The translations under genes and the position numbers were made by a program. Under the pieces are notes generated by a model. It did not search any database. It worked only from the letters and a program-made list of their open reading frames with translations, and was not told the origin of the DNA. Of a DNA stretch of 64,000 nucleotides, positions 4,328 through 57,757 are shown piece by piece. Each line of letters begins with the position of its first letter. Position 1 is the stretch's first letter. This DNA comes from Escherichia coli (GTDB lineage: Bacteria > Pseudomonadota > Gammaproteobacteria > Enterobacterales > Enterobacteriaceae): the NCBI RefSeq assembly GCF_044324785.1, contig NZ_CP172127.1; one strand, written 5' to 3'.

Positions 4328-4376
4328 TCATATAACAAAACATGCAGCTTGCCATATTTAAATTTAAGGAATTGTT

Positions 4377-40200: not shown

Positions 40201-42642
40201 CATGGTGGGCAAAAGCTGACGTTAGCCGAACATGGCGGAGCCTATGGCGCAACGGCCGATATGTCGGCAAAAATCGGTGGTGAAGGGGATCTGGCAATCA
40301 ATACGGTGCGACAGGTTTCGCTTTCCAACGGTCAGAACGACTATCAGGGGGCAACCTACGTTCAGATGGGGACATTACGTACCGATGCGGATGGCGCGCT
40401 GGGCAATACTCGGGAACTAAACATCAGCAACGCGGCCATCGTCGATCTTAATGGATCGGCCCAGACGGTAGAGACATTCACCGGGCTGATGGGTTCGACT
40501 GTTTTGTTTAAAGAGGGGTCGCTGACGGTGAATAAAGGTGGGATCAGTCAGGGCGAACTGACAGGTGGCGGAAACCTGAATGTTACAGGGGGAACGCTGG
40601 CTATCGAGGGGCTTAATGCACGCTACAATGCCTTAACCAGCATTAGCTCAAATGCGGAAGTCAGCCTCGATAATACGCAGGGGTTAGGCAGAGGAAATAT
40701 TGCCAATGACGGTCTGTTAACGCTAAAAAACGTGACCGGCGAACTGCGTAATAGCATAAGCGGGAAGGGTATCGTGAGCGCAACCGCCAGGACAGACGTA
40801 GAGCTGGATGGCGATAATAGCCGCTTTGTGGGGCAATTCAACATTGATACAGGCAGCGCGCTCAGCGTCAACGAGCAGAAAAACCTGGGTGATGCTTCCG
40901 TTATCAATAATGGCCTGCTCACCATCTCCACTGAGCGTAGCTGGGCGATGACGCACAGTATCAGCGGTAGCGGTGATGTGACAAAACTGGGTACCGGGAG
41001 CCTGACTCTTAACAACGATTCCGCGGCGTATCAGGGTACGACGGATATCGTGGGTGGTGAAATTGCTTTCGGTTCCGACTCTGCCATTAATATGGCAAGT
41101 CAGCACATTAATATCCATAACAGCGGTGTGATGTCGGGAAATGTCACCACTGCAGGTGATGTGAACGTTATGCTAGGGGGGACACTGCGTGTCGCCAAAA
41201 CCACTATCGGCGGCAATCTGGAGAATGGTGGCACGGTTCAAATGAATAGCGAAGGGGGGAAACCGGGGAATGTGCTGACCGTTAACGGCAACTATACCGG
41301 AAACAATGGCCTGATGACGTTCAACGCGACGCTGGGCGGAGATAATTCACCCACGGATAAAATGAACGTGAAAGGCGATACCCAAGGGAACACTCGCGTT
41401 CGGGTTGATAACATTGGCGGCGTCGGTGCACAAACGGTCAACGGTATTGAACTCATTGAGGTCGGCGGTAATTCTGCAGGTAACTTCGCGCTGACCACCG
41501 GAACTGTCGAAGCTGGGGCTTACGTCTACACGCTGGCTAAAGGGAAGGGGAATGACGAGAAAAACTGGTATCTGACCAGTAAATGGGACGGCGTAACGCC
41601 AGCGGATACACCCGATCCCATCAATAATCCCCCTGTTGTGGATCCGGAAGGCCCATCAGTTTATCGCCCGGAGGCCGGAAGCTATATCAGCAACATTGCC
41701 GCAGCCAACTCGCTGTTTAGCCATCGCTTACACGACCGTCTGGGTGAGCCGCAGTATACAGATTCACTGCGAGTTCAGGGTTCGGCAAGCAGTATGTGGA
41801 TGCGTCATGTCGGGGGGCACGAACGTTTCAGGACCGGTGACGGCCAGCTAAATACTCAGGCTAACCGCTATGTATTGCAGCTAGGAGGCGATTTGGCGCA
41901 GTGGAGTAGCAACGCGCAGGATCGCTGGCATCTTGGCGTGATGGCAGGCTACGCCAATCAGCACAGTAATACTCAGAGTAATCGTGTGGGTTATAAATCG
42001 GATGGGCGCATCAGCGGTTACAGCGCAGGACTGTACGCGACCTGGTATCAGAACGATGCGAATAAGACCGGCGCTTATGTTGACAGCTGGGCGCTGTATA
42101 ACTGGTTTGATAACAGCGTCAGTTCCGATAACCGCTCGGCTGACGACTATGATTCTCGCGGTGTGACGGCCTCTGTTGAGGGTGGGTATACCTTTGAAGC
42201 GGGAACATTTAGCGGCAGCGAAGGGGCGCTGAATACCTGGTACGTCCAGCCACAGGTACAAATCACCTGGATGGGTGTGAAAGATTCTGACCATACCCGG
42301 AAAGACGGAACACGCATTGAAACAGAAGGCGACGGAAACGTGCAAACGCGGCTTGGGGTGAAAACCTACCTGAACAGTCATCACCAGCGTGACAATGGTA
42401 AACAGCGTGAGTTCCAGCCTTACATTGAAGCGAACTGGATCAACAACAGCAAAGTCTACGCCGTGAAGATGAATGGTCAAACCGTAAGCCGTGATGGTGC
42501 GCGTAATCTCGGTGAAGTACGTACCGGGGTTGAGGCGAAAGTAAATCACAACCTTAGCCTGTGGGGGAATGTCGGTGTGCAACTAGGTGATAAAGGCTAT
42601 AGCGATACTCAGGGCATGCTGGGTGTGAAATATAGCTGGTAA
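37222..42642 (+). CDS. yneO: Large AIDA-I-type autotransporter adhesin (type Va secretion)
   Basis: Start taken at MNRIYRVIWNCTLQVF, an extended autotransporter signal peptide, with GGAG at 37211-37214. Long beta-helical passenger with repeated GxGTLNI/GxGxLNV motifs; C-terminal beta-barrel ending ...GMLGVKYSW. One continuous ORF of about 1,806 aa from this start. Confidence 0.85.
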   Translation: MNRIYRVIWNCTLQVFQACSELTRRVGKTSTVNLHKSSGLTTKFSRLTLGVLLALSGSVSGASLEVDNDQITNIDTDVAYDAYLVGWYGTGVLNILAGGNASLTTITTSVIGGNENSKGTVNVLGGTWRLYDSGNNARPLNVGQSGTGTLNIKQKGHVDGGYLRIGSSTGGVGTVNVEGEDSVLTTELFEIGSYGTGSLNITDKGYVTSSIVAIVGYQANSNGKVVVEKGSEWLIKNNDSSIEFQIGNQGTGEATIRDGGLITAENTITGGNATGIGTLNVQDQDSVITVRRLYNGYFGNGTVNISNNGLINNKEYSLVGVQDGSHGVVNVTDKGHWNFLGTGEAFRYIYVGDAGDGELNVSSEGKVDSGIITAGMKETGTGNITVKDKNSVITNLGTNLGYDGHGEMNISNEGLVVSNGGSSLGYGETGVGKVSITTGGMWEVNKNVYTTIGVAGVGNLNISDGGKFVSQNITFLGDKASGIGTLNLMDATSSFDTVGINVGNFGSGIVNVSNGATLNSTGYGFIGGNASGKGIVNISTDSLWNLKTSSTNAQLLQVGVLGAGELNITTGGIVKARDTQIALNDKSKGDVRVDGQNSLLETFNMNVGTTGTGTLTLTNNGTLNVEGGEVYLGVFEPAVGTLNIGAAHGEAAADAGFITNATKVEFGLGEGVFVFNHTNNSDAGYQVDMLITGDDKDGKVMHDAGHTVFNAGNTYSGKTLVNDGLLTIASHTADGVTGMGSSEVTIANPGTLDILASTNSAGDYTLTNALKGDGLMRVQLSSSDKMFGFTHAIGTEFAGVAQLKDSTFTLERDNTAALTHAMLQSDSENTTSVKVGEQSIGGLAMNGGTLTFDTDIPAATLAEGYISVDTLVVGTGDYTWKGRNYQVNGMGDVLIDVPKPWNDPMANNPLTTLNLLEHDDSHVGVQLVKAQMVIGSGGSLTLRDLQGDEVEADKTLHIAQNGTVVAEGDYGFRLTTAPGDGLYVNYGLKALNIHGGQKLTLAEHGGAYGATADMSAKIGGEGDLAINTVRQVSLSNGQNDYQGATYVQMGTLRTDADGALGNTRELNISNAAIVDLNGSAQTVETFTGLMGSTVLFKEGSLTVNKGGISQGELTGGGNLNVTGGTLAIEGLNARYNALTSISSNAEVSLDNTQGLGRGNIANDGLLTLKNVTGELRNSISGKGIVSATARTDVELDGDNSRFVGQFNIDTGSALSVNEQKNLGDASVINNGLLTISTERSWAMTHSISGSGDVTKLGTGSLTLNNDSAAYQGTTDIVGGEIAFGSDSAINMASQHINIHNSGVMSGNVTTAGDVNVMLGGTLRVAKTTIGGNLENGGTVQMNSEGGKPGNVLTVNGNYTGNNGLMTFNATLGGDNSPTDKMNVKGDTQGNTRVRVDNIGGVGAQTVNGIELIEVGGNSAGNFALTTGTVEAGAYVYTLAKGKGNDEKNWYLTSKWDGVTPADTPDPINNPPVVDPEGPSVYRPEAGSYISNIAAANSLFSHRLHDRLGEPQYTDSLRVQGSASSMWMRHVGGHERFRTGDGQLNTQANRYVLQLGGDLAQWSSNAQDRWHLGVMAGYANQHSNTQSNRVGYKSDGRISGYSAGLYATWYQNDANKTGAYVDSWALYNWFDNSVSSDNRSADDYDSRGVTASVEGGYTFEAGTFSGSEGALNTWYVQPQVQITWMGVKDSDHTRKDGTRIETEGDGNVQTRLGVKTYLNSHHQRDNGKQREFQPYIEANWINNSKVYAVKMNGQTVSRDGARNLGEVRTGVEAKVNHNLSLWGNVGVQLGDKGYSDTQGMLGVKYSW

Positions 42643-47087: not shown

Positions 47088-49739
47088 ATGACATCCTTTC
47101 GTGCCGCATTTAAGGCATATCGTATGCATCAGGTGTTACTACTGCCTCGCTTTGCACGGCTTACCATTGCCCTTGGCTTAGCAACTGCGGTTTTTCCCGT
47201 TGACGCAGAGTATTATTTTAATCCACGGTTTTTAAGCAATGATCTTGCTGAATCTGTCGATTTATCCGCCTTTACTAAGGGACGCGAGGCACCACCTGGT
47301 ACATATCGGGTCGACATTTATTTGAACGACGAATTTATGACTAGTCGGGATATTACTTTTATTGCAGATGATAATAACGCAGATCTCATCCCATGCCTGA
47401 GTACAGATCTTCTTGTCAGTCTTGGCATAAAAAAATCAGCGTTATTAGACAATAAAGAACATTCGGCAGAAAAACATGTGCCGGACAACAGCGCATGCAC
47501 ACCACTTCAGGATCGTTTGGCCGACGCATCAACTGAGTTTGATGTTGGTCAGCAACATCTGTCACTCTCCGTTCCGCAAATTTATGTTGGCAGAATGGCT
47601 CGCGGCTATGTTTCTCCTGATCTGTGGGAAGAAGGAATAAATGCTGGGCTGCTAAACTATAGTTTTAATGGTAATTCTATTAATAATCGTAGTAACCATA
47701 ATGCAGGAAAATCCAACTATGCATATTTGAATTTACAGAGTGGCATCAACATTGGTAGTTGGCGACTGCGCGATAACTCAACGTGGAGTTATAACAGTGG
47801 GAGTAGCAATTCATCTGACAGCAATAAATGGCAGCATATCAATACGTCGGCTGAACGTGACATTATTCCCTTACGCTCACGCTTAACGGTAGGTGATAGT
47901 TATACCGATGGCGATATTTTTGATAGTGTGAACTTTCGTGGCCTCAAAATAAATTCAACAGAAGCGATGTTGCCCGATAGCCAACATGGTTTCGCTCCGG
48001 TGATTCATGGTATTGCCCGCGGCACCGCACAAGTGAGTGTAAAACAGAATGGATACGATGTTTATCAGACTACTGTCCCACCCGGCCCTTTTACTATTGA
48101 TGATATCAACTCTGCGGCCAATGGTGGTGATCTGCAAGTAACCATAAAAGAGGCAGACGGCAGTATTCAGACATTATATGTTCCTTATTCGTCTGTTCCG
48201 GTTCTCCAACGTGCTGGATATACGCGTTATGCGCTTGCCATGGGGGAATATCGTAGTGGAAATAACCTGCAAAGCTCCCCCAAGTTCATACAAGGTAGCT
48301 TGATGCATGGACTGGAAGGAAACTGGACACCTTATGGCGGAATGCAAATTGCAGAAGATTATCAGGCCTTCAACCTTGGTATTGGTAAAGATTTAGGACT
48401 TTTTGGTGCCTTTTCTTTCGATATCACGCAGGCCAATACGACACTTGCAGATGGCACCCGTCACAGCGGGCAATCGATTAAATCCGTCTACAGCAAATCC
48501 TTCTACCAGACGGGAACCAATATCCAGGTCGCAGGATATCGCTATTCTACGCAAGGTTTTTATAACTTATCCGACAGTGCCTACAGTCGAATGAGTGGTT
48601 ACACCGTCAAGCCTCCTACCGGAGACAGCAACGAGCAGACACAATTTATTGATTATTTTAATCTGTTCTACAGTAAGCGTGGTCAGGAACAAATAAGCAT
48701 CTCTCAGCAGCTTGGAAATTACGGTACGACATTTTTCAGTGCCAGTCGCCAAAGTTACTGGAACACGTCACGCAGCGACCAGCAAATATCATTTGGATTA
48801 AATGTGCCGTTTGGTGATATTACGACTTCGCTGAATTACAGCTTTTCCAATAATATATGGCAAAACGATCGGGATCATTTACTTGCTTTTACGCTTAATG
48901 TTCCCTTCAGTCATTGGATGCGTACAGACAGTCAGTCGGCATTTCGTAATTCAAACGCCAGTTACAGTATGTCAAACGATTTGAAAGGCGGCATGACCAA
49001 TCTATCAGGGGTTTATGGCACTCTGCTGCCGGATAATAACCTGAATTATAGCGTTCAGGTAGGTAACACCCACGGAGGTAATACATCGTCTGCCACCAGT
49101 GGTTACAGTTCTCTTAATTATCGTGGAGCTTACGGTAATACGAATGTCGGTTACAGTCGGAGTGGGGACAGCAGCCAGATTTATTACGGAATGAGTGGTG
49201 GGATTATTGCTCATGCTGATGGCATCACCTTTGGTCAGCCGCTGGGCGACACAATGGTTCTGGTTAAGGCTCCTGGCGCTGATAATGTCAAAATAGAGAA
49301 CCAGACCGGTATTCATACCGACTGGCGTGGCTATGCCATATTACCATTTGCGACAGAATATAGAGAAAATCGTGTCGCTCTTAACGCGAATTCCCTTGCA
49401 GATAATGTTGAACTGGATGAAACAGTAGTCACTGTCATCCCAACTCACGGTGCTATTGCCAGAGCAACATTTAATGCACAAATCGGCGGGAAAGTATTAA
49501 TGACGTTGAAGTACGGTAATAAGAGCGTTCCATTCGGTGCAATTGTCACACACGGAGAGAATAAAAATGGCAGCATTGTCGCGGAAAACGGTCAGGTTTA
49601 TCTGACTGGACTTCCACAGTCAGGGAAATTACAGGTTTCATGGGGCAAAGATAAAAACTCAAACTGTATTGTCGAGTACAAGCTTCCTGAAGTTTCTCCT
49701 GGTACCTTACTGAACCAGCAGACAGCAATCTGTCGCTAA
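47088..49739 (+). CDS. ydeT: Outer-membrane fimbrial usher (FimD/PapC-like), full length
   Basis: 883-aa ORF with usher N-terminal, barrel, plug and C-terminal domains. Confidence 0.85.
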   Translation: MTSFRAAFKAYRMHQVLLLPRFARLTIALGLATAVFPVDAEYYFNPRFLSNDLAESVDLSAFTKGREAPPGTYRVDIYLNDEFMTSRDITFIADDNNADLIPCLSTDLLVSLGIKKSALLDNKEHSAEKHVPDNSACTPLQDRLADASTEFDVGQQHLSLSVPQIYVGRMARGYVSPDLWEEGINAGLLNYSFNGNSINNRSNHNAGKSNYAYLNLQSGINIGSWRLRDNSTWSYNSGSSNSSDSNKWQHINTSAERDIIPLRSRLTVGDSYTDGDIFDSVNFRGLKINSTEAMLPDSQHGFAPVIHGIARGTAQVSVKQNGYDVYQTTVPPGPFTIDDINSAANGGDLQVTIKEADGSIQTLYVPYSSVPVLQRAGYTRYALAMGEYRSGNNLQSSPKFIQGSLMHGLEGNWTPYGGMQIAEDYQAFNLGIGKDLGLFGAFSFDITQANTTLADGTRHSGQSIKSVYSKSFYQTGTNIQVAGYRYSTQGFYNLSDSAYSRMSGYTVKPPTGDSNEQTQFIDYFNLFYSKRGQEQISISQQLGNYGTTFFSASRQSYWNTSRSDQQISFGLNVPFGDITTSLNYSFSNNIWQNDRDHLLAFTLNVPFSHWMRTDSQSAFRNSNASYSMSNDLKGGMTNLSGVYGTLLPDNNLNYSVQVGNTHGGNTSSATSGYSSLNYRGAYGNTNVGYSRSGDSSQIYYGMSGGIIAHADGITFGQPLGDTMVLVKAPGADNVKIENQTGIHTDWRGYAILPFATEYRENRVALNANSLADNVELDETVVTVIPTHGAIARATFNAQIGGKVLMTLKYGNKSVPFGAIVTHGENKNGSIVAENGQVYLTGLPQSGKLQVSWGKDKNSNCIVEYKLPEVSPGTLLNQQTAICR

Positions 49740-50858: not shown

Positions 50859-51773
50859 ATGGGTAAAACAATAAGTATGAAGCTTCTGTTCGGTATTTAT
50901 CTTCTATTAATGGCAGGCAAAGTTTTTGCCTTCAGTTGTAATGTCGATGGCGGGTCAAGTATTGGAGCAGGTACAACCTCTGTTTATGTTAATCTCGACC
51001 CTGTAATACAACCGGGCCAGAATCTGGTTGTAGACTTGTCTCAACATATCAGTTGCTGGAATGATTACGGCGGCTGGTACGACACTGATCATATAAACCT
51101 GGTACAAGGCTCAGCTTTCGCAGGCTCTCTACAGTCATATAAAGGATCGCTGTACTGGAATAATGTGACCTACCCCTTCCCGTTGACGACAAATACTAAT
51201 GTATTAGATATTGGTGATAAGACACCGATGCCATTACCGTTAAAACTCTATATTACCCCAGTCGGGGCGGCCGGTGGAGTTGTCATAAAAGCCGGGGAAG
51301 TTATTGCCCGTATTCATATGTATAAAATTGCCACGTTAGGAAGCGGAAATCCGCGTAATTTTACGTGGAATATTATTTCAAATAACAGTGTTGTTATGCC
51401 AACAGGCGGCTGCACTGTTGATAGTCGTAATGTCACCGTGAATCTCCCGGACTTTCCTGGAAGCGCAGAAATACCCCTTGGCGTATATTGCTCAAGCGAA
51501 CAAAAGCTCTCATTTTATCTTTCGGGTGCCACCACTGACAGTGCCCGACAAGTGTTTGCTAACACAGCACCAGATGCAACAAAAGCATCGGGAGTGGGTG
51601 TCTCTCTGATGCGTAATGGAAAAATACTGGCTACGGGAGAAAACGTCTCCCTGGGGACAGTAAATAAAAGCAAAGTACCTCTGGGTTTAAGCGCAACCTA
51701 TGGACAAACAGGAAACAAGGTTGCAGCCGGAACAGTTCAGTCAGTCATTGGTGTCACTTTTATCTATGAATAA
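50859..51773 (+). CDS. ydeQ: Fimbrial tip adhesin (FimH-like two-domain adhesin)
   Basis: 304-aa ORF; N-terminal lectin-like domain ([14 protein letters not shown]...[20 protein letters not shown]) plus a pilin domain. Confidence 0.8.
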
Positions 51774-51846
51774 TTGTGATTTTGACATTAGTCTATGCGT
51801 TCCATTCACGAAAATTGTGCGGATAATTATTTTGTGAAGGCTATTA

Positions 51847-51863
51847 TCCTACACTTGTAAGAA
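51847..51863 (+). promoter_or_regulatory. EvgA-box-like inverted repeat upstream of ydeP
   Basis: TCCTACA-CT-TGTAAGAA, matching the EvgA consensus (TTCYTACA...TGTARGAA), about 250 bp upstream of ydeP. Confidence 0.6.
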
Positions 51864-52111
51864 AATCCGCGCACAATTGAAGCCAGAGTCTTATTTTTTA
51901 TATTGAAAAACATGTTAATTTAAACACTATGAGAGATGATGCTTAACTTATCGTATTTATACCATTCTATTATTTAACGATAATAGATTAAAAATAGAAA
52001 GAGAGTAGTCCCCTACTCTTATATATCCAGGTTGATGATAAACCTATTATATATACTGTGCATCATCGCTATTACAAATCCTAATAATTCATTTCCACAC
52101 AGGATAAGCAG

Positions 52112-54391
52112 ATGAAGAAAAAAATTGAATCCTACCAGGGAGCTGCCGGTGGTTGGGGTGCTGTTAAATCCGTAGCAAATGCAGTACGTAAGCAGATGGA
52201 TATACGCCAGGATGTTATTGCCATGTTTGACATGAATAAGCCAGAGGGCTTTGACTGTCCGGGATGTGCATGGCCAGATCCTAAGCACAGTGCGTCATTC
52301 GACATTTGTGAAAACGGCGCAAAAGCAATCGCCTGGGAAGTCACGGATAAGCAGGTAAATGCCTCTTTCTTTGCTGAGAATACGGTTCAATCATTACTTA
52401 CCTGGGGAGATCACGAGCTTGAGGCTGCGGGGCGTCTCACTCAGCCTTTGAAATATGATGCCGTCAGCGACTGTTACAAGCCATTAAGCTGGCAACAAGC
52501 TTTCGACGAAATAGGCGCACGCCTTCAAAGCTATAGTGATCCCAATCAGGTTGAATTCTATACTTCGGGCCGCACTTCCAATGAAGCAGCCTTTCTTTAT
52601 CAGCTTTTTGCCCGTGAATACGGGAGCAATAACTTTCCCGACTGTTCCAACATGTGCCATGAACCGACCAGCGTGGGATTGGCAGCGAGTATCGGTGTAG
52701 GTAAAGGGACCGTGTTGCTGGAAGACTTTGAGAAATGCGATTTAGTCATTTGCATTGGGCATAACCCTGGTACAAACCACCCTCGCATGTTGACTTCGTT
52801 GCGCGCTTTAGTGAAACGGGGAGCGAAAATGATCGCCATCAATCCTCTACAGGAACGTGGCCTGGAGCGATTTACCGCACCGCAAAACCCGTTTGAAATG
52901 CTGACGAACTCTGAGACTCAGTTGGCCAGTGCCTACTACAACGTGCGCATTGGTGGTGATATGGCGTTGCTCAAGGGGATGATGCGCCTGTTAATTGAGC
53001 GCGATGATGCTGCAAGCGCCGCAGGTCGGCCCTCATTGCTTGATGACGAATTTATTCAAACGCATACCGTCGGCTTTGACGAGCTACGCCGTGACGTTCT
53101 CAATTCCGAGTGGAAAGATATCGAACGTATTTCTGGACTAAGTCAGACACAAATCGCCGAACTGGCTGATGCATATGCCGCTGCCGAACGCACCATTATC
53201 TGTTACGGAATGGGGATCACTCAGCACGAACATGGTACCCAGAATGTACAGCAACTGGTCAATCTGCTGTTGATGAAAGGTAACATTGGCAAGCCTGGTG
53301 CGGGTATCTGCCCACTACGAGGTCACTCTAATGTACAGGGCGACCGAACCGTCGGTATCACCGAGAAACCGTCTGCAGAGTTTCTGGCTCGCCTGGGTGA
53401 GCGCTATGGTTTCACCCCACCTCATGCACCTGGACATGCTGCAATTGCCAGCATGCAAGCAATATGTACGGGGCAGGCTCGAGCATTGATCTGCATGGGG
53501 GGCAACTTTGCACTGGCAATGCCAGATCGGGAAGCGAGCGCTGTACCGTTAACGCAATTAGATTTGGCGGTACACGTAGCCACTAAGCTTAACCGCTCTC
53601 ATCTGCTGACCGCACAGCATAGCTATATTCTGCCGGTTCTTGGGCGTAGCGAGATTGACATGCAAAAAAGCGGTGCGCAGGCGGTAACCGTTGAGGATTC
53701 AATGTCGATGATTCATGCCTCGCGTGGCGTGTTAAAACCCGCCGGTGTAATGCTGAAATCAGAGTGTGCAGTGGTCGCGGGAATCGCGCAGGCAGCACTA
53801 CCCCAGAGCGTGGTAGCCTGGGAGTATCTGGTGGAAGATTATGATCGCATTCGCAATGACATTGAAGCTGTGCTGCCAGAGTTCGCCGACTATAACCAGC
53901 GCATCCGACATCCTGGAGGTTTTCACCTGATAAACGCAGCTGCTGAAAGGCGCTGGAGGACGTCGTCAGGTAAGGCTAATTTCATTACCAGTAAAGGGCT
54001 GTTAGAAGATCCCTCTTCAGCGTTTAACAGTAAGCTAGTCATGGCGACAGTACGCAGTCACGATCAGTACAACACGACGATTTATGGTATGGATGATCGC
54101 TATCGAGGGGTATTCGGTCAACGAGATGTGGTCTTTATGAGTGCTAAACAAGCTAAAATTTGCCGTGTAAAAAACGGCGAAAGAGTTAATCTTATTGCGC
54201 TTACGCCAGACGGTAAGCGAAGCTCACGCCGCATGGATAGATTAAAAGTGGTCATTTACCCTATGGCTGACCGCTCACTGGTGACCTATTTTCCAGAATC
54301 GAATCACATGCTAACACTTGATAACCACGATCCATTAAGTGGCATTCCTGGCTATAAAAGTATTCCGGTTGAATTAGAACCATCAAATTAA
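52112..54391 (+). CDS. ydeP: Molybdopterin-dependent oxidoreductase (formate dehydrogenase-like), acid-resistance protein
   Basis: 759-aa ORF with an N-terminal Cys cluster (CPGCAW) and molybdopterin oxidoreductase domains. Confidence 0.85.
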
Positions 54392-54512
54392 TTCGCCTCC
54401 TCATTTCTTCTGCTGTCATCCGCACAGCAGAAGAATTCCTCATTGACCATTGTCGCGCAATTTACTCACATGTGCTAAATTTAAACTGCTCGTTATAAGA
54501 TATATACCTCCT

Positions 54513-54529
54513 CCTACAGCTGTAAGAAA
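54513..54529 (+). promoter_or_regulatory. EvgA-box-like inverted repeat upstream of safA-ydeO
   Basis: TCCTACA-GC-TGTAAGAA, about 110 bp upstream of safA; lies within a roughly 45-bp stretch similar to the ydeP upstream element. Confidence 0.6.
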
Positions 54530-54639
54530 CTCCGCTCAGTACTGAAGCGCCAGTCCTATTTCCTCTACTCTCCAGCCTGTTATATTAAGCATACTGATTA
54601 ACGATGCTTAACGTCATTCGTTTAATAAACACATTTGAA

Positions 54640-54831
54640 ATGCATGCGACCATAGTGAAAAATAAAATCACGCAAAGAGACAACTATAAAGGGATCATGT
54701 CTGTAATTGTGGTTGTCTTATTACTGACCCTTACGGTGATAGCCATTTTTTCGGCAATTGATCAGCTGGGTATTTCAGAAATGGGTCGCATTGCAAGGGA
54801 TCTTACACATTTCATTATCAATAGTTTGTAA
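54640..54831 (+). CDS. safA: SafA small membrane connector protein (EvgS/EvgA to PhoQ/PhoP)
   Basis: MHATIVKNKITQRDNYKGIMSVIVVVLLLTLTVIAIFSAI...; single TM helix; start taken at the internal Met of ORF 54604-54831. Confidence 0.75.
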   Translation: MHATIVKNKITQRDNYKGIMSVIVVVLLLTLTVIAIFSAIDQLGISEMGRIARDLTHFIINSL

Positions 54832-54911
54832 GACTGAAAATAAACAGCAAATTATAAATATGAAATGTTAAAAAAGTATCGATAAAAACTTTATTGTTTT
54901 AAGGAGATAAA

Positions 54912-55673
54912 ATGTCGCTCGTTTGTTCTGTTATATTTATTCATCATGCCTTCAACGCTAACATTTTAGATAAAGATTACGCCTTCTCAGACGGCGAGAT
55001 CCTGATGGTAGATAACGCTGTTCGTACGCATTTTGAACCTTATGAGCGGCATTTCAAAGAAATCGGATTTAATGAAAATACCATTAAAAAATATCTACAA
55101 TGCACTAACATCCAGACAGTGACGGTGCCTGTTCCTGCGAAGTTTTTACGTGCTTCAAATGTACCGACTGGATTGCTTAATGAAATGATTGCTTATCTCA
55201 ACTCGGAAGAACGCAATCATCATAATTTTTCAGAACTTTTGCTTTTTTCTTGCCTGTCTATTTTTGCCGCATGCAAAGGTTTCATTACACTATTAACTAA
55301 CGGTGTGCTATCCGTTTCCGGGAAAGTGAGAAATATTGTCAACATGAAGCTGGCGTACCCATGGAAGCTGAAAGATATTTGTGACTGCCTGTACATTAGT
55401 GAAAGCCTGTTGAAGAAAAAACTTAAGCAAGAGCAAACGACATTCTCACAGATTCTTTTAGATGCCAGAATGCAGCACGCAAAAAATTTGATACGCGTAG
55501 AAGGTTCAGTCAATAAAATTGCCGAACAATGTGGTTATGCCAGTACATCTTATTTTATTTATGCGTTCCGCAAACATTTCGGCAACAGTCCGAAGAGAGT
55601 TTCTAAGGAGTACCGTTGTCAAAGGCACACCGGTATGAACACGGACAACACGATGAGTGCTTTAGCTATTTGA
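54912..55673 (+). CDS. ydeO: AraC-family acid-resistance regulator YdeO
   Basis: 253-aa ORF with a C-terminal AraC double HTH, downstream of safA. Confidence 0.85.
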   Translation: MSLVCSVIFIHHAFNANILDKDYAFSDGEILMVDNAVRTHFEPYERHFKEIGFNENTIKKYLQCTNIQTVTVPVPAKFLRASNVPTGLLNEMIAYLNSEERNHHNFSELLLFSCLSIFAACKGFITLLTNGVLSVSGKVRNIVNMKLAYPWKLKDICDCLYISESLLKKKLKQEQTTFSQILLDARMQHAKNLIRVEGSVNKIAEQCGYASTSYFIYAFRKHFGNSPKRVSKEYRCQRHTGMNTDNTMSALAI

Positions 55674-56074
55674 TTATTTGCTAACGAGTAGTCAACCACA
55701 CACGCTACGTAAGAATTAAATGGGGCAGCCATTTCCTGCCCCGCGTTGTTTTTAGGCGATATATTTATTGAAATAAATAAGTGACACTCATCACATATTT
55801 ATGCATTTGCATAACCTGTTGCATAATTATTTATGATCTTAATTCGGAATTTTGTCAGTAAAATACAATAATTTATTAAATATCAATAGATTAGTTGTTT
55901 ATCTGCGAGAAATTACTTAGTAGAATAGAAAGTAATGTCAACAGTTTATGGACTGTTATTTCTCTTTTTTTAGCTAAATCTGCTATCTCTTTATGTGACT
56001 AACTTCACTTACATCCACTTATTTCTCTTCGTAAAATTACTTTGGAATTAAGTACAATAAGAAGAGGAACATTT

Positions 56075-57757
56075 ATGAAGTCTGCATTAAAGAAAAGTGT
56101 CGTAAGTACCTCGATATCTTTGATACTGGCATCTGGTATGGCTGCATTTGCTGCTCATGCGGCAGATGATGTAAAGCTGAAAGCAACCAAAACAAACGTC
56201 GCTTTCTCAGACTTTACGCCGACTGAATACAGTACCAAAGGAAAGCCAAATATTATCGTACTGACCATGGATGATCTTGGTTATGGACAACTTCCTTTTG
56301 ATAAGGGATCTTTTGACCCAAAAACAATGGAAAATCGTGAAGTTGTCGATACCTACAAAATAGGGATAGATAAAGCCATTGAAGCTGCGCAAAAATCAAC
56401 GCCGACGCTCCTTTCATTAATGGATGAAGGCGTACGTTTTACTAACGGCTATGTGGCGCACGGTGTTTCCGGCCCCTCCCGCGCCGCAATAATGACCGGT
56501 CGAGCGCCCGCCCGCTTTGGTGTCTATTCCAATACCGATGCTCAGGATGGTATTCCGCTAACAGAAACTTTCCTGCCTGAATTATTCCAGAATCATGGTT
56601 ATTACACTGCAGCAGTAGGTAAATGGCACTTGTCAAAAATCAGTAATGTGCCGGTACCGGAAGATAAACAAACGCGTGACTATCATGACAACTTCACCAC
56701 ATTTTCTGCGGAAGAATGGCAACCGCAAAACCGTGGCTTTGATTACTTTATGGGATTCCACGCTGCAGGAACGGCATATTACAACTCCCCTTCACTGTTC
56801 AAAAATCGTGAACGCGTCCCCGCAAAAGGTTATATCAGCGATCAGTTAACCGATGAGGCAATTGGCGTTGTTGATCGTGCCAAAACACTTGACCAGCCTT
56901 TTATGCTTTACCTGGCTTATAATGCTCCGCACCTGCCAAATGATAATCCTGCACCGGAGCAATATCAGAAGCAATTTAATACTGGTAGTCAAACAGCAGA
57001 TAACTACTACGCTTCCGTTTATTCTGTTGATCAGGGTGTAAAACGCATTCTCGAACAACTGAAGAAAAACGGACAGTATGACAATACTATTATTCTCTTT
57101 ACCTCCGATAATGGTGCGGTTATCGATGGTCCTCTGCCGCTGAACGGGGCGCAAAAAGGCTATAAGAGTCAGACCTATCCTGGCGGTACTCACACCCCAA
57201 TGTTTATGTGGTGGAAAGGAAAACTTCAACCCGGTAATTATGACAAGCTGATATCCGCAATGGATTTCTACCCGACAGCTCTTGATGCAGCCGATATCAG
57301 CATTCCAAAAGACCTTAAGCTGGATGGCGTTTCCTTGCTGCCCTGGTTGCAAGATAAGAAACAAGGTGAGCCACATAAAAATCTGACCTGGATAACCTCT
57401 TATTCTCACTGGTTTGATGAGGAAAATATTCCCTTCTGGGATAATTACCACAAATTTGTCCGCCATCAGTCAGACGATTACCCGCATAACCCCAACACCG
57501 AAGATTTAAGCCAATTCTCTTATACGGTGAGAAATAACGATTATTCGCTAGTCTATACAGTAGAAAACAATCAGTTAGGTCTATACAAACTGACGGATCT
57601 ACAGCAAAAAGATAACCTTGCCGCCGCCAATCCGCAGGTCGTTAAAGAGATGCAAGGCGTGGTAAGAGAGTTTATCGACAGCAGCCAACCACCGCTTAGC
57701 GAGGTAAATCAGGAGAAGTTTAACAATATCAAGAAAGCACTAAGCGAAGCGAAATAA
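56075..57757 (+). CDS. ydeN: Periplasmic sulfatase (arylsulfatase family)
   Basis: Start taken at MKSALKKSVVSTSISLILASGMAAFA (signal peptide); sulfatase domain. The formylglycine-motif position carries serine (SGPSR), i.e. a Ser-type sulfatase. Confidence 0.8.
   Translation: MKSALKKSVVSTSISLILASGMAAFAAHAADDVKLKATKTNVAFSDFTPTEYSTKGKPNIIVLTMDDLGYGQLPFDKGSFDPKTMENREVVDTYKIGIDKAIEAAQKSTPTLLSLMDEGVRFTNGYVAHGVSGPSRAAIMTGRAPARFGVYSNTDAQDGIPLTETFLPELFQNHGYYTAAVGKWHLSKISNVPVPEDKQTRDYHDNFTTFSAEEWQPQNRGFDYFMGFHAAGTAYYNSPSLFKNRERVPAKGYISDQLTDEAIGVVDRAKTLDQPFMLYLAYNAPHLPNDNPAPEQYQKQFNTGSQTADNYYASVYSVDQGVKRILEQLKKNGQYDNTIILFTSDNGAVIDGPLPLNGAQKGYKSQTYPGGTHTPMFMWWKGKLQPGNYDKLISAMDFYPTALDAADISIPKDLKLDGVSLLPWLQDKKQGEPHKNLTWITSYSHWFDEENIPFWDNYHKFVRHQSDDYPHNPNTEDLSQFSYTVRNNDYSLVYTVENNQLGLYKLTDLQQKDNLAAANPQVVKEMQGVVREFIDSSQPPLSEVNQEKFNNIKKALSEAK

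Follow-up and report, generated by a model that had tools for sequence, protein, structure and literature searches.

Two EvgA-dependent promoters of the Escherichia coli acid-resistance locus, at ydeP and safA-ydeO, as probable copies of one cassette of about 102 bp

How two neighboring operons come to answer to the same response regulator is the question raised by the E. coli acid-resistance locus, where ydeP and safA-ydeO each lie downstream of an EvgA box. In the 64-kb stretch of E. coli DNA analyzed here (the window), ydeP (plus strand, 52112..54391; 759 amino acids), a putative acid-resistance oxidoreductase, is followed by safA (plus strand, 54640..54831; 63 amino acids, codon 64 being the stop) and by ydeO (plus strand, 54912..55673), which encodes an AraC-family activator of gadE. 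The gene order ydeQ-ydeP-safA-ydeO is annotated likewise in K-12 and in E. coli 2012C-4221, which is 99.8% identical to the window over the 501 bases of 51700-52200 and 98.7% identical over a wider 12.5 kb. By these annotated genomes, a preliminary description of the locus had correctly assigned the genes downstream of the two boxes. Nearly all E. coli possess the EvgS/EvgA system (PMC5706723); evgAS itself is not inside the 64-kb window and maps ~0.9 Mb away in K-12. The safA-ydeO promoter is bound directly by EvgA (PMC9496106). Activated EvgA causes strong induction from the ydeP promoter, and all directly regulated genes have an EvgA site (PMC4283999). Annotation thus names the two operons, and these two reports describe their control by EvgA. 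We put at roughly 93% the probability of the overall reading, in which the two regions are the EvgA-dependent sigma-70 promoters of the locus, PydeP and PsafA, and probably derive from one cassette of ~102 bp.

The preliminary description had pointed to two visibly similar stretches, each with an inverted repeat matching the EvgA consensus, and both observations hold: the 45-bp stretches that it quoted are identical at 34 of 45 positions in pairwise alignment, and TCCTACA-NN-TGTAAGAA has exactly two exact matches in the window, at 51847-51863 and 54512-54528, where 0.08 are expected by chance from shuffles and where none of 100 shuffles held two. Even with up to two mismatches, the motif matches the window only at these sites. 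We also scanned with an EvgA weight matrix, a check that the preliminary description had proposed, trained solely on other K-12 EvgA-target promoters with the ydeP and safA boxes left out. The ydeP box, ATCCTACACTTGTAAGAA (plus strand, 51846..51863), scores 22.5 bits and is the top site in the window, and the safA-ydeO box, CTCCTACAGCTGTAAGAA (plus strand, 54511..54528), ranks second at 21.4 bits, far over the background (third site, 12.5; window mean, -17.6; standard deviation, 6.8) and inside the 18 to 25 bits spanned by the training sites. Each 18-mer is one mismatch from the palindrome TTCYTACA-NN-TGTARGAA, which also occurs upstream of K-12 emrK/evgA, frc, yfdX, and yegR, operons reported as direct EvgA targets. 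In both boxes the promoter-proximal half-site, TGTAAGAA, is perfect and the distal one degenerate.

The 18-bp EvgA-box consensus reportedly goes back to Masuda and Church in 2003 and to Itou et al. in 2009, and the EvgA boxes of the K-12 ydeP and b1500 (safA)-ydeO promoters are said to have been described in the same years by Masuda and Church and by Itou, Eguchi, and Utsumi. The K-12 orthologs of the ydeP and safA boxes are AGCCTACACCTGTAAGAA and TGCCTACAGCTGTAAGAA, respectively; on sequence evidence, 51846-51863 and 54511-54528 are the EvgA binding sites already described for E. coli ydeP and safA-ydeO. The box scores, the K-12 target sites, and published work (PMC9496106, PMC4283999) support the proposed fit to the cascade from EvgAS to YdeO in acid resistance. 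A reading of raw sequence has recovered a real, experimentally established pair of regulatory sites and adds little biology in doing so. The box pair is the known wiring from EvgS/EvgA to YdeO and SafA, and the only addition is that ~100 bases are common to both promoters, as if copied.

That addition concerns the length of the repeat. The likeness noted in the preliminary description stands, and its length of ~45 bp does not: what is repeated is a promoter cassette ~102 bp long. The intervals 51846-51947 and 54511-54612 align in exact register, gap-free, with 70 of 102 positions identical (55 of 84 in the part after the box), and the 60-bp flanks are at background identity (17/60 and 18/60; 28-30%), giving the unit sharp edges. 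Its local alignment score is 39, compared with 10.6 ± 1.5 in 1,000 shuffles; with the box removed the score is 26 against 9.3 ± 1.5, reached by none of 1,000 shuffles, and the similarity without the box gives z values of 7.5 to 10.7 in the window strain and K-12 alike. The first copy (plus strand, 51846..51947) runs from the box through a linker, a weak -35 region, and an extended -10, then past the transcription start to about nt 19 of the transcript; the second, putatively paralogous copy is at safA (plus strand, 54511..54612). The two share no exact 11-mer. Their likeness is collinear and gap-free, reaches past the functional motif, and has defined boundaries, the pattern by which a segmental duplication is recognized. 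We infer that PydeP and PsafA are paralogs, each a copy of the same ~102-bp cassette reaching ~19 nt into the transcript, and, because both promoters would be such copies, that safA-ydeO was probably wired to EvgA by copying of a whole promoter and not by independent origin of a box.

Comparison with other EvgA promoters bears on this reading. K-12 frc (yfdW), yfdX, yegR, and emrK/evgA have the 18-bp palindrome in common with ydeP and safA, and their sites account for the 18-to-25-bit range given above; the inverted repeats at yfdX and yfdW are bound by EvgA (PMC3720670). Read from sequence, frc has a -10-like hexamer at a similar distance from its box and yegR one ~4 bp further. Past the box, however, these promoters lack the extended likeness to the ydeP/safA cassette, with the exception of a marginal match between ydeP and yegR (z = 2.6), in which ATTTAAACACTA(T)GAGAG is common to both near the -10 and start.

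An alternative to duplication is convergence, in which both regions independently evolved the same transcription factor site and similar core-promoter signals with no common origin. Identity is indeed strongest in the box itself, the core-promoter elements are short, and polymorphism is not significantly lower at shared than at unshared cassette positions (p = 0.43 and 0.15). Nor is there remnant similarity beyond the 102 bp, either between the ydeP leader and 5' coding sequence and the region from safA through the ydeO start or between the regions upstream of the two boxes. Convergence does not readily account for a gap-free, sharply bounded identity at 55 of 84 post-box positions, nor for box-free z values that other pairs of EvgA promoters, the marginal ydeP-yegR match apart, do not show. 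Much of what the copies share, moreover, such as TCCGC.CA, CAGTC.TATTT, and GAT..TTAAC, corresponds to no known polymerase or EvgA signal, and we regard convergence as quite improbable. That the sequence instead belongs to a dispersed family of intergenic repeats, or is a structured RNA gene, and is not a regulatory site has a negligible probability: all that favors this is that the sequence occurs twice, and against this there are 2 copies only in 64 kb, promoter queries match one place per genome (median), and an Rfam scan of 51000-56500 returned no family and nothing but a chance OxyS match (E = 0.14).

The duplicated cassette reading is also consistent with the placement of the core promoters. 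The extended -10 of PydeP, TGtTAATTT (plus strand, 51913..51921), and that of PsafA, TGtTATATT (plus strand, 54578..54586), are in exact register, and the latter is kept as TGcTATATT in a divergent lineage, L007. An RNA probe used in PMC11210196 consisted of the K-12 ydeP 5' leader, from -178 to +10. The position 178 nt 5' of the K-12 ydeP ATG is the A of ATGAGAGATG, which corresponds to window position 51929, and because of this published leader we place the ydeP start at 51929 ± 1, directly after TGtTAATTT. Relative to that start the ydeP box would extend from about -83 to -66, with its center at ~-74.5; the register with ydeP predicts a safA start at ~54593-54594. A consensus promoter scan called TTGAAG-16-TATATT at 51877-51904, a possible second promoter of ydeP. 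As a promoter shared by both copies it was rejected, as its safA counterpart varies (TCTACT, TCTTTT, or TCTATT) and lacks the essential A.

Each promoter would then begin with an 18-bp EvgA-box palindrome, downstream of which come a conserved linker, a -35 region of poor quality, and an extended -10 (TGnTAATTT or TGnTATATT). By analogy with K-12, for which these steps are established, EvgA would be phosphorylated by EvgS at mildly acidic pH, a dimer of EvgA would bind each box and recruit or activate RNA polymerase, and the output would be YdeP together with two activators, SafA for PhoQ and YdeO for gadE. A PhoP-box match at 54595-54611 is a hint only, because PhoP-box matches occur in the two intergenic regions at no higher density than across the window as a whole (3.3 per kb at up to 3 mismatches).

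How EvgA acts from a primary site at -74.5, far from polymerase, invites comparison with its homologue BvgA. BvgA promoters of Bordetella, such as fhaB and fim3, carry several dimers arrayed at 22-bp spacing. They resemble the promoters in the window in that the regulators are homologous proteins of the NarL/FixJ type and a weak core promoter is served by an inverted-repeat primary site that lies well upstream; they differ in their 22-bp multidimer arrays, of which the EvgA matrix gives a weak sign at ydeP and none at safA. By this analogy the linker after each box might hold secondary low-affinity EvgA sites, with dimers of phosphorylated EvgA lined up every 22 bp toward polymerase. The second-best matrix score near the ydeP box is centered exactly 22 bp downstream (CGCGCACAATTGAAGCCA, in the top 0.5% of window positions), and safA has a perfect palindrome, TCAGTACTGA, centered 21 bp downstream of its box. 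The ydeP score is -1.0 bits, however, and with ~115 offsets tried, each promoter should yield ~0.6 such matches; at safA the matrix gives none at +21 or +22. Class I activation through the alpha C-terminal domain from a site near -72 also has no need of extra dimers. Such secondary sites seem unlikely, if slightly less so than convergence.

The weak +22 match at ydeP overlaps one arm of a second inverted repeat, which the preliminary description saw bracket the ydeP box and suggested might be an additional regulatory structure. The repeat exists, with a left arm, aaaattgtgcggata (51811..51825, about -118 to -104 of PydeP, within a conserved block), and a right arm, tccgcgcacaatt (51866..51878, -63 to -51), the latter in the linker between EvgA box and core promoter and within the module that ydeP and safA have in common. 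It is imperfect, with 9 bp perfect (AATTGTGCG at 51813-51821 and CGCACAATT at 51870-51878) and 12 bp once a 2-nt bulge is admitted. An alternative would make it a functional ydeP-specific element, either a stem in DNA or RNA or two half-sites ~5 helical turns apart for another dimeric regulator that bracket and gate the EvgA box. The arm centers are ~55 bp apart, the minimum-energy fold of single-stranded DNA joins the two arms, and the left-arm block, TCCATT.A..AAAA.TG.GCGGAT, is a conserved island amid the diverged upstream regions of L007 and of another lineage, L136 (91.6% identical).

Repeats as good are not unusual, however: a perfect repeat of at least 9 bp arose in 46 of 300 shuffles and a bulged one of at least 12 bp in 20 of 300 shuffles (~7%) and in 13 of 189 real 338-bp windows, and the fold has a z of only -1.9. 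The repeat center is ~10 bp off the box center, a 12-bp insertion in L007 between the left-arm block and the box alters the arm spacing, and left-arm variants (T/C at 51818; G/A in L136) are uncompensated in the right arm, whose conservation the promoter cassette already accounts for. The repeat has no counterpart at safA, and the left-arm block was not found at other EvgA promoters. The arms of 9 to 12 bp also lack the traits of a terminator or cruciform: they have no T-run, lie upstream of the transcription start and so are not in ydeP mRNA, and have a spacing of 48 nt, which makes a cruciform implausible. As an extra regulatory structure the repeat thus finds no support, and we consider it as improbable a ydeP-specific element as convergence is an origin of the cassette.

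A joint reading of these observations is that the cassette was duplicated across ydeP, bringing the E. coli-specific safA-ydeO into the EvgA regulon, that conserved nonbox positions have a further, undescribed function (secondary contacts with EvgA, contacts with the alpha-CTD, or a conserved 5' transcript element), and that the block at -118 to -104 of ydeP serves another factor. We hold this combination only tentatively, as possible and on balance doubtful, at a level above that of secondary sites or of a ydeP-specific repeat taken singly. The EvgA box is absent upstream of the ydeP orthologues examined outside E. coli (Edwardsiella, Yersinia rohdei, Raoultella, Burkholderiaceae, and others); at the amino acid level, ydeP orthologues are 85% identical in Edwardsiella and 67% in Yersinia rohdei.

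Within E. coli, the variable part of the EvgA box is the distal half-site. In comparison to the K-12 ydeP and safA-ydeO promoters, the window has the same genes, order, and spacing, and the proximal half-site TGTAAGAA and ensuing linker are identical, whereas the ydeP box reads ATCC..CT where K-12 has AGCC..CC and the safA box CTCC where K-12 has TGCC. Mismatches to the consensus number one at ydeP and one at safA in the window, against two and one, respectively, in K-12. The T at 54512, which gives the safA box its TCCTACA, is private, being in no other copy examined and in none of 5,426 complete E. coli genomes. Linked G/T variation at position 2 of both boxes was considered and rejected, as T is common at ydeP and G is universal at safA outside the window. 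Promoter regions were present in 5327 (ydeP) and 4792 (safA) of the 5426 complete genomes. On metagenome contigs where the partner promoter could be located, its box was intact in 37/37 cases for safA and in 33/33 for ydeP, the latter being contigs sampled through their safA box and counted only if the ydeP promoter was locatable.

These additions are modest and bear on how a two-component regulon grows: one apparently copied cassette, a variable distal half-site, a private box change toward consensus, and a shortened SafA. They could also guide the design of EvgS/EvgA reporters, for which PydeP and PsafA are in wide use.

Three smaller features accompany the promoters. The ydeP 5' leader (plus strand, 51929..52111; 183 nt), with a 5-nt insertion relative to K-12, is predicted from fold energy to be structured (-39.3 kcal/mol, compared with -26.5 ± 3.6 for shuffled sequences; z = -3.5), and it showed no compensatory covariation across 16 distinct variants. 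A putative mini-ORF, MRDDA, would have its AUG at the 5' end of the leader, and a predicted long-range helix would pair 51932-51942 with about 52060-52070. Just past the ydeP stop codon is a perfect 12-bp stem with a 7-nt loop (plus strand, 54405..54435), which has no T-run, was not called by a terminator scan, and is kept in K-12. SafA in the window strain is shorter by two residues.

The motif TCCTACA-NN-TGTAAGAA occurs exactly at 51847-51863, within the 18-bp box upstream of ydeP (51846-51863), and at 54512-54528, within that upstream of safA (54511-54528), against 0.08 matches expected from shuffles; with two mismatches allowed, no further site was found in the 64 kb. The EvgA consensus, reportedly TTCYTACA-NN-TGTARGAA and said to come from work by Masuda and Church in 2003 and Itou et al. 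in 2009, was checked empirically against K-12 promoters targeted by EvgA. Sites for this palindrome with 0 to 3 mismatches lie in the K-12 emrK-evgA intergenic region and upstream of frc, yfdX (twice) and yegR, as well as upstream of ydeP and safA. A weight matrix trained on five K-12 sites, with those of ydeP and safA left out, scores the two boxes at 22.5 and 21.4 bits, first and second among ~64,000 positions and far over the background (next best, 12.5 bits; mean, -17.6; standard deviation, 6.8), and the preliminary description was right to assign both boxes to EvgA. The emrK-evgA, frc, yfdX and yegR operons are reported EvgA targets. Direct binding of EvgA to the safA-ydeO promoter is documented (PMC9496106), EvgA also binds inverted repeats at yfdX and yfdW (PMC3720670), activated EvgA strongly induces the ydeP promoter, and all directly regulated genes have an EvgA site (PMC4283999). 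The two boxes are the already known wiring from EvgS/EvgA to ydeP and safA-ydeO (PMC9496106 and PMC4283999), in agreement with the acid-resistance cascade named in the preliminary description. Our results refine this known system: a 102-bp cassette, a box near -74.5, a T private to the safA box and a second inverted repeat that is not significant.

Similarity between the two upstream regions is real and extends well beyond the ~45-bp repeated element originally described. The 45-bp stretches are identical at 34 of 45 positions, and they form part of a gap-free match of 102 bp between 51846-51947 and 54511-54612, with 70/102 positions identical (55/84 after the box). The 60-bp flanks on each side are only 28 to 30% identical, and no similarity between the ydeP and safA regions was found outside the 102 bp. 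Local alignment of the two regions scores 39 (shuffles, 10.6 ± 1.5), and without the box it still scores 26 (shuffles, 9.3 ± 1.5), a value reached by 0 of 1,000 shuffles; the K-12 cassette pair gives the same outcome (z = 7.5). Other pairs of EvgA promoters share no sequence beyond the box, except for a marginal match (z = 2.6; 3/200 shuffles) in the -10/start region, where ydeP (51919-51936) and yegR (4330-4350 of the K-12 sequence L005) have ATTTAAACACTA(T)GAGAG in common. Orthologues match at 90 to 97% identity and the paralogues at ~69%, so recent gene conversion has not taken place. We infer from these alignments that an entire promoter cassette was probably duplicated long ago, its copy 2,665 bp downstream bringing safA-ydeO under EvgA control. 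Polymorphism at cassette positions common to the two copies is not significantly lower than at those that differ.

The cassette appears to hold complete promoters. The 5' leader of ydeP has been given as -178 to +10 (PMC11210196), and the A of ATGAGAGATG is 178 nt upstream of the K-12 ydeP ATG; with the 5-nt insertion in this strain's leader accounted for, that A corresponds to 51929. Directly upstream is an extended -10 element, TGtTAATTT (51913-51921), with a safA equivalent, TGtTATATT (54578-54586), at an identical offset from its box and kept as TGcTATATT in L007, the most divergent lineage found. With the ydeP start so placed, the box (-83 to -66) would be centered near -74.5, which is a typical position for an upstream activator, and by register the safA start would lie near 54593-54594. 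A weak -35 region, (C/T)TATTT, lies 3' of the box. TTGAAG-16-TATATT, proposed by a consensus scanner, is probably not the shared promoter, since the corresponding safA sequence is missing the essential -10 adenine and differs among strains. Matches resembling the PhoP box are no denser than background, and no Rfam family was matched. One hint of a BvgA-like array of EvgA dimers comes from a weak matrix match exactly 22 bp downstream at ydeP; this match is no better than chance, and safA does not have it.

The second inverted repeat around the ydeP box (arms 51811-51825 and 51866-51878) does exist, as 9 perfect base pairs (51813-51821/51870-51878) or 12 with a 2-nt bulge, separated by a 48-nt spacer; its suggested role as a regulatory structure finds no support. 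Perfect repeats of comparable size turn up in 15% of shuffled intergenic sequences and 14% of real 338-bp windows, bulged ones in 7% of each, and the single-strand fold of the region reaches a z of only -1.9. The repeat is centered ~10 bp off the box center and lies wholly before the start site, at -118 to -51; nothing like it was found at safA, and variants in the left arm go uncompensated in the right arm. The right arm is part of the linker that the two cassettes share, whereas the left arm forms a conserved island amid diverged upstream sequence in two distant lineages, L136 (91.6% identity) and L007, the latter with 12 bp inserted between arm and box, and may be a site for some factor rather than a stem.

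Variation in the boxes was followed in E. coli contigs from one metagenome pattern scan, with 79 copies of the ydeP type and 71 of the safA type that could be used; the search pattern itself held their promoter-proximal half-site constant. Where the partner promoter could be located on contigs found via the other promoter, its box was intact in all cases (safA, 37/37; ydeP, 33/33). The variable part is the distal half-site, A[T/G/C]CCTAC[A/C] in ydeP and [T/C]GCCTACA in safA. The T at 54512, position 2 of the safA box, moves that box toward the consensus; it is found in 0 of 71 metagenome copies and is absent from K-12, CFSAN018748, 2012C-4221 and L007, every other copy examined having G. In part, then, the exact motif common to both boxes reflects a change private to this strain. 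None of 5,426 complete E. coli genomes matches 54492-54550 exactly. Of these genomes, 5,327 carry the ydeP promoter region and 4,792 the safA promoter, in line with a published account of evgAS and safA-ydeO as nearly universal in E. coli and not found outside it (PMC5706723). Beyond E. coli, the nearest ydeP orthologues, those of Edwardsiella spp. (85% amino acid identity, different gene context), Yersinia rohdei (67%) and more distant ones, have no EvgA box; the Edwardsiella identity seems unusually high for the genus pair and suggests horizontal transfer. A contig binned as "Candidatus Nanosynbacter," which has a ydeP 100% identical to that of E. coli and boxes of the K-12 type, is evidently mis-binned E. 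coli.

Around the boxes, the sequence runs collinear with the fimbrial and acid-resistance locus of E. coli: ydeQ (50859-51773), ydeP (52112-54391), safA (54640-54831) and ydeO (54912-55673), all on the plus strand. A 501-base stretch at the ydeP start shows 99.8% identity to 2012C-4221, which carries the same gene annotations, as does K-12 MG1655; over 12.5 kb the closest genome available is only 98.7% identical. Compared to 2012C-4221, the window is missing a ~6-kb PTS/porin/6-phospho-beta-glucosidase block and has ~1.8 kb additional near 40750-42570. The fimbrial usher upstream of ydeS (47088-49739) is an intact 883-amino-acid open reading frame, whereas in K-12 it is represented by the fragments ydeT and yneL. 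Codon 64 of safA (54829-54831) is a TAA stop, CAA in other strains, leaving a 63-residue SafA without the last two residues of its PhoQ-interacting C-terminal region (QG in K-12; QD in CFSAN018748). A hairpin of 12 perfect base pairs and a 7-nt loop (54405-54435), 3' of the ydeP stop codon, has no T-run after it, was not called as a terminator and may be only a weak one, which would fit the description of ydeP-safA-ydeO as a read-through unit (PMC11052181).

Strong structure is predicted for the ydeP leader (51929-52111; -39.3 kcal/mol versus -26.5 ± 3.6 for shuffles; z = -3.5), with a long-range helix pairing 51932-51942 with ~52060-52070 around three hairpins and a final helix in which the Shine-Dalgarno region is paired. 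No compensatory changes were found in 16 distinct variants, only one-sided changes preserving G·U pairs. If transcription starts at 51929, the ydeP mRNA would open directly with the AUG of a 5-codon mini-ORF, ATGAGAGATGATGCTTAA (MRDDA*; 51929-51946), which is unchanged in all lineages seen, the most divergent included. The in-register safA sequence, CTGATTAACGATGCTTAA, has the same GAT-GCT-TAA ending.
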